A stretch of DNA of 64,000 nucleotides from Burkholderiales bacterium (GTDB lineage: Bacteria; Patescibacteriota; Minisyncoccia; Phycocordibacterales; UBA9973), in contig JAMPXW010000002.1 in NCBI GenBank assembly GCA_023701005.1, positions 113,053-177,052 of the forward strand. The letters run 5' to 3'. Shown one piece after another: positions 49,421 to 51,365 of the stretch. The translations under genes and the position numbers were made by a program. Under the pieces are notes generated by a model. It was not told where the DNA came from. It made no database searches and saw nothing but the letters and a program-made list of their open reading frames with translations. Position 1 is the stretch's first letter. Every line of letters starts with the position of its first letter.

Positions 49421-49584
49421 ACAATATAATTATAAAACAAAAAAGACAGTAAAGATAAACTCTACTGCCTTTTTGTTTACGAAATTAATGTCCTCCTGTC
49501 ATATAAATATAATAAGTAAACAACATTAATAAATCGACACTATATTAATTATATCACCTTTTTAAAAATGCAACAATAAATGCA

Positions 49585-49615
49585 AAACACCCCGCTTACG
49601 CGAGGTGTTTTTGTT
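49585..49615. terminator. hairpin ACACCCCGC-TTAC-GCGAGGTGT with T-runs, ~230 nt downstream of 16S 3' end
   Basis: bidirectional T-runs; overlaps a 73-aa track ORF judged spurious. Confidence 0.5.
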
Positions 49616-49826
49616 TGCTGTTCTATGTTTTGTTTCGTTCTATAAACTTTTTTAATGTATGTCTTTCCACACTTGTCATAAAGTTTTAAGTTCTTAAAAA
49701 CTATTGTGTCGTCAATTGAGCGACACAATACCGACTCAATAAATTCAACCTCTCCGAGGTCAGTCTTCATTTGAGATGAAGAGCTCAGTACTGAAAAATT
49801 TCTTTTTCAGTATTGGAATATTTTCA

Positions 49827-51365
49827 AATTGAATTATTCCACGAGCAGCTTCCGCTACCCGTGCCTTGTTACGACTTAGTCCCTGTCACCGAGCTTACCT
49901 TAGGCCCTACTTATGTAGAGACTTCGGGTACTCCCGGCTCCCTTGACTTGACGGGCGGTGAGTACAAGACTTGAGAACGTATTCACCACAGTTTAGCTGA
50001 CCTGTGATTACTAGCAATTCCAGCTTCATGGAGTCGAGTTGCAGACTCCAATCCGAACTGAGGCCGCTTTTGGACGATTAGCTCAGAGTCGCCTCGTCGC
50101 TGCGCGTTGTAACGGCCATTGTATTATGTGTGTAGCCCAAGGTATCAAGGGACATGCTGACCTGGCGTCATCCTCTCCTTCCTCCCCCGCCTTAAATTTC
50201 GATTTCATCTTTTGATGAATCAAAAACTAAGGCGGGGGCAGTATCGTGTGACACTTGTAACACACAACGAGGGTTGCGTTCGTTACCCCACTTAAGGGAA
50301 CAATTCAAACCACGAACTGACGACGGCCATGCATCACCTGTCAACTAGTCTTGCGAGGGCTCTAGTTTCTTAGAGCTTTCACGTTGATTTCTAACCTTGG
50401 TAAGGTTCTTCGTTTACCATCGAATTAAACCACATAATCCACTGCTTGTGCAAGTCCCCGTCTATTCCTTTGAGTTTTAGCCTTGCGGCCGTACTTCCCA
50501 GGCGGATCTCTTAACGCGTTAGCTAAGCCACTCAGAGGGTCGATACTCCGAATAGCGAGAGATCATCGTTTAGGGCGTGGACTACTGGGGTATCTAATCC
50601 CATTCGCTACCCACGCTTTCGTGTTTCAGTGTCAAATATACGCTAGTGTACTGCTTTCGCTTTTGGTGTTCCCCATGATATCAACGGATTTCACCCCTAC
50701 ACCATGAGTTCCGTACACCTCTCGTACTTTCTAGTTCTGCCGTATCTTTCGCCCTTCCCAAGTTAAGCTCGGGTCTTTAACAAAAGACTAACAAAACAAC
50801 CTACACACCCTTTACGCCCAATAATTCCGGATAACGCTCGAGGCTCTCGTATTACCGCTCCTGCTGGCACGAGATTAGGAGCCTCTTATTCATGAGGTAC
50901 AGTCAATAAACTTCTTCCCTCATAAAAGATCTTTACGTCCCAAAGGGACTTCATCAATCACGCGGCGTCGCTCCATCAGACTTTCGTCCATTGTGGAAGA
51001 TTCTCGACTGCAGCCACCCGTAGGTGTATGGTCCGTGTCTCAGTACCATCGGTGGGGGTCAGGCTCTCACCTCCCCTAGACGTCATAGCCTTGGTAGTCC
51101 ATTACACTACCAACTAGCTGATATCGCACAGGCCTTTCCCAAAGCGAAATTCTTTACTCTTGCGAGACCATCGTGTATTAGTCCGTCTTTCGACGAATTA
51201 TTCACGACTTTGGGGGAAGTTCCTATGTATTACTACCTCGTTCGCCACTAACTTCAAACGACCTTTGACTTGATGTAATCTCATCTCTGGAAAAATGAAG
51301 TCCGTTCGACTTGCATGCCTTATCCACGCCGCCAGCGTTCATCCTGAGCTAGGATCAAACTCTAA
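49827..51365 (-). rRNA. rrs: 16S ribosomal RNA (divergent; 3' boundary approximate)
   Basis: 5' end AGAGTTTGATCCTAGCTCAGGATGAACGCTGGCGGCGTG (RC of 51327-51365); internal 'GTGCCAGCAGGAGCGGTAATAC', 'TTGTACTCACCGCCCGTCA', 'AAGTCGTAACAAGG' + helix-45 GGAA loop. Confidence 0.9.

Follow-up and report, generated by a model that had tools for sequence, protein, structure and literature searches.

Pairing between a Shine–Dalgarno (SD) sequence in the mRNA and the anti-SD sequence near the 3′ end of 16S rRNA is the textbook basis of start selection in bacteria, and complete loss of the anti-SD is rare. The closest described case is a subgroup of Parcubacteria that lacks uL1 and has reduced ribosomes without CCUCCU (Tsurumaki et al. 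2022, RNA 28:1041; PMC9297842). In that study the anti-SD motif was detected in just 48% of Parcubacteria, its loss overlapping the uL1-lacking group, and the absence of the motif alone was reported, with its functional link unclear. Here we analyze a 16S rRNA gene on the minus strand of a 64,000-nt stretch of DNA (contig JAMPXW010000002.1 of assembly GCA_023701005.1; the whole stretch is hereafter called the window, and all positions refer to it), which on the evidence of its 16S rRNA and gene content is part of a Paceibacteria genome (Parcubacteria/OD1, candidate phyla radiation [CPR]). Anti-SD loss is an already published trait of this lineage and the 16S rRNA of the window is one further example; to this we add a replacement hairpin, a series of intermediates, and a promoter geometry. 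We hold it to be probable that the gene is a functional and self-contained Paceibacteria 16S rRNA gene whose 3′ tail has decayed, that initiation in this lineage is SD independent, and that a residual hairpin persists where the anti-SD used to be.

Other described systems resemble this locus in part. Mycobacterium and Deinococcus keep a canonical anti-SD and use SD sequences for leadered genes. In these leaderless-rich bacteria many genes have a fixed short distance between the −10 box and AUG (the leaderless class of GeneMarkS-2; PMC6028130), as we find here; in contrast, the 16S rRNA of the window is without any anti-SD, and the leaderless starts are predictions. Flavobacterium johnsoniae and the Bacteroidia, which are SD “blind”, are also SD independent genome-wide with AU-rich upstream regions, and their anti-SD region additionally matters for 16S maturation; however, they keep CCUCC, hidden under bS21/bS18/bS6 and used for rpsU autoregulation, whereas in the window the sequence itself is lost (PMC13000453). 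In eukaryotic 18S and mitochondrial small-subunit (SSU) rRNAs helix 45 (h45) is likewise followed by a short tail without CCUCC. Yeast 18S rRNA ends in ...GGAUCAUUA, which is close to the GGAUCAUUU tails of some members of the clade studied here. The mammalian mitochondrial SSU is also without an anti-SD (PMC10582724). Unlike these cases, the loss described here has an independent origin in free-standing bacterial genomes with bacterial initiation factors, IF2 being encoded in the window.

The Rfam covariance model for bacterial 16S rRNA (RF00177, gathering score 50) matches a full-length gene of 1544 nt with 1350.6 bits over model positions 1–1533. The first-pass annotation, which was made from the sequence alone, had placed the gene at 51365 to about 49827, and the model confirms this with the 5′ end at 51370. 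The 13 nt after h45 read GAAUAAUUCAAUU, where the consensus is GAUCACCUCCUUU, and align to GAUcACCUCCUUu with an asterisk in the posterior-probability line at every position. The anti-SD positions 1535–1539 are AUUCA instead of CCUCC (49834..49830), and the canonical tail GAUCACCUCCUU, which comprises the Era site and the anti-SD, is not matched, as 7 of 13 positions agree with the consensus. The first-pass annotation had described a noncanonical tail lacking CCUCC and had named a covariance-model alignment of the 3′ end as the test that could refute it; the alignment places no CCUCC and leaves h45 intact, so that the description holds. On the minus strand, CACCTCC is absent throughout the window and CCTCC is absent from 48000 to 52000, hence between the 16S gene and its terminator.

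Apart from its tail the 16S rRNA appears to be the product of an intact, functional gene that is normal for Paceibacteria. The covariance-model alignment of the 3′ domain shows that the decoding-site strands CCGCCCGUCA and AAGUCGUAACAAGG and the GGAA-looped h45 are kept. The 530-loop pseudoknot (505–507/524–526) is altered on both sides, from GGC to UCC (50878–50880) and from GCC to GGA (50859–50861, minus strand), with pairing preserved, and this double compensatory change indicates that the 16S rRNA is under selection. The changed pseudoknot also puts two mismatches into the 515F primer site, and standard amplicon surveys would therefore miss the organism. The covariance-model alignment of the whole gene reveals a 35-nt insertion in the h6 area (about 51257–51291, minus strand); h40, read from the sequence, is enlarged to about 55 nt (about 50190–50243, minus strand), and other helices are shortened, giving an overall length of 1544 nt despite these expansions. 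Two Logan contigs (SRR23907158), which come from a different assembly, join the flanking genes to the 16S gene and are identical to the window, the one on the 5′ side extending to 50998 and the one on the 3′ side beginning at 50053, with the central 945 nt outside both. Because they are identical across both 16S joins, these joins are not chimeric; the chimeric assembly that the first-pass annotation had named as a possible refutation is thus ruled out at both joins, the central 945 nt being uncovered.

To place this tail among its relatives, 16S 3′ ends were collected from one genome per GTDB species using a pattern anchored in the 1390–1400 region and h45, which yields CPR and Campylobacterota sequences. 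The top full-length 16S match in this sample is a “Ca. Taylorbacteria” metagenome-assembled genome (MAG) with 84% identity, and the strongest full-length matches (77–87% identity) come from MAGs labeled Taylorbacteria, Paceibacteria, and Nomurabacteria, a placement by identity rather than by a formal tree. The window h45 has the form CACGG[GC]UAGCGGAAGCUG[CG]UCGUG that is common to MAGs named Paceibacteria, Paceibacterota, Nomurabacteria, Zambryskibacteria, and Ryanbacteria. Metagenome contigs were then scanned for this clade-specific h45, which brought the total to 171 sequences and 166 distinct tails; the clade-type h45 is 100% paired with four covarying pairs. CCTCC is retained in the tail of only two of the 171 sequences and is lacking in the other 169. 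Members of the clade carry stepwise intermediates, from ATCACCTTC, ATCACTTCC, ATCAATTCC, and ATTAATTCC to AATAATTCA, and a series from the canonical tail to that of the window can be arranged by successive C-to-U and C-to-A changes (AUCACCUCC, AUCACCUUC, AUCACUUCC, AUCAAUUCC, AUUAAUUCC, AUUAAUUCA, and AAUAAUUCA), spanning CACCUCC to UAAUUCA. A displaced canonical tail was also sought, and none was found up to the terminator; clade-wide, CCTCC occurs anywhere in the 250-nt trailer in just 12 of 161 cases. Contig ends were considered as a guide to the mature 3′ end, but the metagenome scan supplied none; the lone sequence that ends less than 45 nt from h45, a locus of the genome collection (L038), stops 7 nt after it, and the approach is uninformative.

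These data also bear on another explanation, namely a pseudogene, an assembly artefact, or a functional canonical tail located past an intervening sequence or in a different rRNA copy. In its favor, the view of the genome is confined to 64 kb, CPR 16S genes are known for insertions such as the h6 and h40 expansions seen here, and the second assembly does not cover the central 945 nt. Nevertheless, we find such an explanation hardly credible, given the full-length score of 1350 bits, the conserved functional sites and compensatory changes, the independent reproduction of both flanks, and a leader–trailer helix and terminator that frame exactly the 16S gene (see below). CCTCC is absent between h45 and the terminator and rare in clade trailers, and of 171 related sequences, drawn from independent genomes and metagenomes, 169 have the same tail type.

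The tail of the window can fold back on the sequence that follows it. The 5′ arm UUCA (49833..49830), which is the former anti-SD, pairs with UGAA (49826..49823) across a 3-nt loop, and in the minimum-free-energy fold of the window the stem lengthens to GGAAUA...UAUUCC (49840..49815). The pattern NNCA-loop(2–4)-UGNN fits 91 of 162 unique clade tails, and its arms occur as UUCA/UGAA (53), UCCA/UGGA (22), CUCA/UGAG (5), UCCA/UGGG (3), and GUCA/UGAC (2). In 86 of these 91 tails the two variable pairs are both formed, whereas 5000 permutations give a mean of 62 and a maximum of 74, and in this alignment-free table arms other than UU are compensated in 32 of 33 cases. Single arm variants are found in several h45 and linker backgrounds, which indicates repeated events. 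We additionally built a covariance model from 37 fixed-geometry sequences and used it to align 100 loci; all four tail-helix pairs have changes in both strands, pairing holds in 88.8% of cells, and none of 500 shuffles reaches the observed values. This alignment is fitted to the structure and hence biased toward the hairpin, a bias from which the alignment-free table is free; both were used in place of a MAFFT alignment, which was dropped because it was gapless and left the 3′ arms out of register. The covariation argues that the tail hairpin is still under selection. An extension of the pairing, between GGA at the h45/tail junction and a downstream UCC, was rejected as a general feature: the window and its closest relatives have it, but clade-wide UCC is no commoner after the hairpin than CCU or CUC.

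CPR relatives that keep the anti-SD have a hairpin in the same register, formed by CUCC(UU) with an (A)GGGAG located shortly downstream (CACCUCCUUUCUAGGGAG). In our view, CPR pre-16S rRNA ancestrally had a hairpin that joined the anti-SD to the beginning of the trailer, and the structure of this hairpin would have been kept while its sequence drifted. In Flavobacterium, 16S maturation suffers when the anti-SD is ablated, an effect that is independent of translation (PMC13000453); the anti-SD region thus has a maturation role there, which the conserved hairpin could still serve, and we infer that the hairpin acts in 3′-end maturation of pre-16S rRNA. No earlier account of an anti-SD/trailer hairpin turned up in the literature searchable here. 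In six loci of Peribacteria the tails are CAUCUCC or CACUUCC rather than CACCUCC, and the pairing partner downstream differs accordingly (CAUCUCC..GGGAG and CACUUCC..GGGAA). The anti-SD thus appears to be weakened in a second CPR lineage, the Peribacteria, with the tail–trailer hairpin preserved.

A different fate of the same hairpin is conceivable, in which it is kept in the mature 16S rRNA. The anti-SD would then have become a permanent mini-helix of Paceibacteria 16S rRNA, an SD-helix mimic that fills the platform cleft normally occupied by the SD/anti-SD duplex and tunes the 30S subunit for SD-less and leaderless initiation. The hairpin does lie exactly at the anti-SD position and is maintained by covariation; conservation runs through the 3′ arm plus one base and then gives way to a loose CG-containing motif; and h26, which contacts the SD helix, is highly conserved in Parcubacteria although an SD helix is impossible there (Tsurumaki et al. 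2022, PMC9297842). On the other hand, homology with anti-SD-keeping relatives (CCUCCUUUCUAGGGAG) puts the mature end in the loop, which implies removal of the 3′ arm, the stem consists of only four AU-rich pairs, and about 40% of clade members are without the hairpin. We found no CPR ribosome structure in the literature searchable here. We consider a retained mini-helix unlikely; if it were true, a built-in mimic would adapt a bacterial 30S subunit to a proteome made almost entirely from leaderless and SD-less mRNAs.

With a tail that has no anti-SD the ribosome cannot form an SD helix, and the upstream regions of genes agree with this. GGAG or GAGG occurs at −22 to −4 in 6 of the 53 window genes compared with 9.8% of 1098 internal ATGs that served as control (P = 0.42), and clade-wide SD motifs are not enriched either (odds ratio 1.13, P = 0.18; 627 genes from 168 loci). 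The little SD use that the first-pass annotation had noted is therefore a matter of background frequency in the window and in the clade, and the three starts for which it had reported AGGAG (ATG at 12736, 22367, and 23452) are confirmed. Two of the AGGAG starts are nearly identical over 22 nt (AAAAGGAGAATAAAATGGAAAA and ATAAGGAGAAACAAAATGGAAAA). The AGGAG starts could be relics, acquired genes, or chance.

Loss of SD pairing would be only apparent if the anti-SD had been re-tuned, with mRNAs carrying a matching AU-rich “new SD” (complement AAUUGAAUUAUU) that still pairs with the rRNA. Complement words made of A and T only are indeed commoner upstream of genes (AATTA in 11 of 53 vs. 5% in the control, TTATT in 10 of 53), but they are explained by promoters of the TATAAT-T type and AT-rich spacers, and the words with a G or C, which are the informative ones, stay at background (TGAAT 2/53, TTGAA 3/53, GAATT 4/53, and TTGAAT 0/53). 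Predicted duplex energies point the same way: in 91 genes from 17 loci with identical tails, the real tail has no advantage over 60 shuffled tails in pairing with upstream regions (z = +0.84 over all genes and −0.07 over nonleaderless genes). Furthermore, the tail sequence differs between sublineages while self-pairing is preserved. As the k-mer test and the shuffled-tail test are both negative, we reject re-tuning as very improbable.

What the upstream regions do contain is a promoter element. TATAAT is the top upstream 6-mer in the window, found in 11 genes where 0.36 are expected, and a −10-like hexamer ends 5–8 nt before the start in 20 of the 53 genes but in only 3.9% of the internal ATGs. 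All 20 of these genes begin with ATG, and several have an extended TG. Clade-wide, exact TATAAT is present at spacers of 6, 7, 8, and 9 nt in 17, 11, 10, and 6 of 619 genes, respectively, whereas most other spacers have 0–2 and never more than 5; compared with internal sites, the odds ratio for the −10 geometry is 7.1 (P = 3e-50). By established promoter geometry, a spacer of 6 nt makes the A of AUG the usual +1 position. Constant, short spacing between a −10 box and AUG is the sequence signature of leaderless mRNAs, which we accordingly predict for these genes. Among the remaining 33 window genes, 17 overlap the preceding same-strand gene or lie at most 19 nt from it. Many of the leaderless-type −10 boxes themselves lie inside the preceding same-strand gene or 3–34 nt from its end (16608–17387, 42973–43377, and 51894–53108, among others); packed genes with their own −10 boxes seemingly have individual promoters rather than forming operons.

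From these elements the following account can be assembled for what we consider the most probable explanation, a functional 16S rRNA with a decayed tail, SD-independent initiation, and a residual hairpin. The promoter would drive transcription into a leader, a 26-bp helix would enclose the 16S rRNA alone as an RNase III-type substrate, and the intrinsic terminator would end the unit. The single-stranded tail would have decayed from GAUCACCUCCUU to GAAUAAUUCAAUU by C-to-U and C-to-A changes. In about 40% of genes a TATAAT −10 box ends 5–8 nt before AUG, and transcription would start at or next to the start codon; the resulting leaderless mRNAs would bind the ribosome via AUG, initiator tRNA, and IF2. 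About a third of genes, those overlapping the preceding same-strand gene or at most 19 nt from it, are probably translated by re-initiation, and the remaining genes would have AU-rich leaders with no recognizable motif. The loss may have been tolerated when both forces that hold the tail in place had gone, namely, mRNA pairing and binding of the Era KH domain to GAUCACCUCC: the domain binds this sequence and era has been lost in most CPR (PMC10582724), and Paceibacteria keep rbfA but are mostly without era, der, and rplA (PMC12641178). The hairpin would have been retained, with the former anti-SD UUCA as its 5′ arm and UGAA as its partner, in the register of the CUCC/GGGAG hairpin found in relatives that keep the anti-SD. 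Of this account, the sequences show the integrity of the gene, its tail and the spread of such tails across the clade, the covarying hairpin, the flat SD signal, the promoter geometry, the leader–trailer helix, and the terminator; leaderless starts and re-initiation, where the mature 3′ end lies, what the hairpin does, and what Era loss contributed are inferred.

Several observations weigh against this explanation. Three plus-strand genes have a well-placed AGGAG (12725–12738, 22355–22369, and 23442–23454), although this number is about chance level. About 40% of clade tails fall outside the hairpin pattern, for example those of the AUCAAUUAAACU and AUCAUUUUUUU types, and on its own the hairpin has a marginal folding energy (0 to −2.7 kcal/mol). 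The leaderless geometry is also found in CPR loci with a retained anti-SD (ABY1-like loci; odds ratio 3.7, P = 4.5e-5); it is thus not clade specific and cannot alone explain the loss. In the same anti-SD-keeping loci SD motifs are not enriched (odds ratio 0.65), and the Campylobacterota positive control of 26 genes is likewise flat, leaving the cross-clade comparison underpowered. The gene starts are crude open reading frame (ORF) calls, transcription starts and the mature 16S 3′ end were predicted from the DNA, and for era, ybeY, rpsU, and rplA the view is limited to 64 kb of the genome. The pattern in anti-SD-keeping relatives can also be read forward in time: leaderless initiation may be general in CPR, and the flat SD signal suggests that SD independence preceded anti-SD loss, with the reservation that the positive control of the underlying test is underpowered. 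On leaderless translation in Parcubacteria or CPR we found nothing relevant in the literature searchable here.

The 16S gene forms a transcription unit of its own, the features of which are compiled in table 1. No large-subunit (LSU) or 5S rRNA reaches the Rfam gathering score in the window, and tRNAs are confined to 12.5 kb and 20.9–21.4 kb, about 28–37 kb from the 16S gene. Brewer et al. defined rRNA genes as unlinked when 16S and 23S are more than 1500 bp apart, and here no LSU match is found in 49.8 kb downstream or 12.6 kb upstream. The Rfam and tRNA scans thus agree with the first-pass annotation, which had described a stand-alone 16S gene without 23S, 5S, or spacer tRNAs and with a terminator at 49585–49615, where we identify a hairpin and T-run; the gene also has its own leader–trailer helix. 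Unlinked rRNA genes have been reported in Patescibacteria, a clade exclusively of unlinked taxa (Brewer 2019, bioRxiv 10.1101/705046), and the distance in the window is likewise far greater than 1.5 kb; beyond that report, the stand-alone unit is resolved here into a promoter-like site, a 26-bp helix around the 16S rRNA only, and an intrinsic terminator. A 23S gene within 3–8 kb downstream is found in none of 18 clade loci and in none of 18 CPR loci that keep the anti-SD. A tie between unlinked rRNA genes and anti-SD loss was therefore rejected, and 16S–23S unlinking is a general, already published trait of CPR.

The leader and trailer strands form a helix of 26 bp with one mismatch and one G–U pair (z = 14.7 vs. 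shuffles), as determined by an ungapped best-helix search; RNAduplex on 300-nt flanks was dropped, as it gave long interleaved duplexes with poor z scores. A comparable helix of 18–38 bp surrounds the 16S rRNA alone in 44 of 46 clade loci with both flanks, its trailer arm lying 93–236 nt after h45. Long complementary segments also flank 16S rRNA in described pre-rRNA leader–trailer helices (PMC11404451), a text that does not mention Patescibacteria or CPR; by comparison, the window helix lies on a monocistronic 16S transcript. Across the clade the helix arms have a core in common, UUGUUCCGUUC in the leader and GAACGGAACAA in the trailer, the window versions being UUGUUUCGUUC and GAACGAAACAA. 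The conserved core suggests a recognition site for a protein or RNase, or a boxA-like element. Trailers of clade loci are enriched in the motif GUCGAU(AUUGUG), with GTCGA in 101 of 164 unique trailers compared with 17 expected and its first occurrence at a median of 50 nt after h45; the complement of GUCGAU was not found in leaders. An extended −10 box, TGATATAAT (49556..49548, minus strand), lies past the 16S terminator and ahead of a second terminator-like hairpin (49474..49440, minus strand), and the approximately 105 nt after the box contain GUGUCGAUU and a perfect SD-like ACAGGAGGACA and have no Rfam match; this segment (49440–49556, minus strand) could encode a small RNA or a tiny ORF.

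Table 1. Features of the 16S transcription unit and of related genes in the window
Feature	Coordinates	Strand	Basis and remarks
Terminator-like hairpin closing the upstream gene (51894..53108)	51760..51790	−	Insulates the 16S unit
Promoter-like site TTGACA-17-TATACT upstream of leader	51695..51723	−	11/12 consensus matches; consensus match only
Leader strand of leader–trailer helix, GCUGUUUUUUGUUUUGUUUCGUUCUA	51481..51506	−	
16S rRNA gene	49827..51370	−	RF00177; full length by homology
Helix 45 with GGAA tetraloop, CACGGGUAGC GGAA GCUGCUCGUG	49840..49863	−	Covariance-model alignment; clade-typical form
3′ tail GAAUAAUUCAAUU in place of GAUCACCUCCUUA	49827..49839	−	Covariance-model alignment
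Tail hairpin UUCA-AUU-UGAA	49823..49833	−	Compensatory arm types across clade; minimum-free-energy fold
Trailer hairpins	49816..49785, 49782..49764, 49762..49746, 49730..49702	−	Folding and scans
GAGUCGG motif	49737..49731	−	104 nt after h45, at foot of hairpin 49730..49702
Trailer strand of leader–trailer helix, UAGAACGAAACAAAACAUAGAACAGC	49617..49642	−	
Intrinsic terminator	49584..49611	−	12-bp stem, 6 G–C pairs, GUAA loop, T-run; 216–243 nt after 16S 3′ end
Short IF2 (506 aa) and RbfA genes	19059..20899	+	Pfam; RbfA at 20579..20899

The protein-coding genes of the window, which has a G+C content of 32.6%, fit a CPR genome of the Paceibacteria type; they include a short IF2, RbfA, a T4SS pilin array, mur genes, SecA, and GyrA. 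The presence of IF2 and RbfA is consistent with the published Paceibacteria profile, in which rbfA is kept and era is lost. The pilin array consists of five genes with T4SS-pilin domains (PF18895) at 23999–27218 on the minus strand, as reported for Patescibacteria. Among the genes labeled in the first-pass annotation, the 396-aa protein called ATP-grasp has no Pfam match, and the 312-aa protein labeled ddl has only a partial match to the C-terminal domain of D-Ala-D-Ala ligase (E = 7e-9).

We found no report, in the literature searchable here, of covariation in the tail hairpin, of intermediates between the tails, of leaderless geometry across the clade, or of the monocistronic leader–trailer unit, nor of the lack of enrichment of SD motifs and of complements of the new tail upstream of genes. 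In practice, start codons in these genomes will be mis-called by SD-based gene finders, long-amplicon methods spanning 16S, the internal transcribed spacer (ITS), and 23S cannot work on this lineage, and standard amplicon primers miss it. For the biology of the Paceibacteria, the lineage represents a natural case of a bacterial ribosome that is unable to use SD pairing. How start codons are chosen was left open in the 2022 study, and the sequence evidence offers a testable account, in which mRNAs would begin at AUG through the placement of the promoter and many of the remaining genes would depend on tight coupling to their neighbors. The residual constraint that the hairpin places on the old anti-SD site points to a role in maturation that is separate from mRNA binding.

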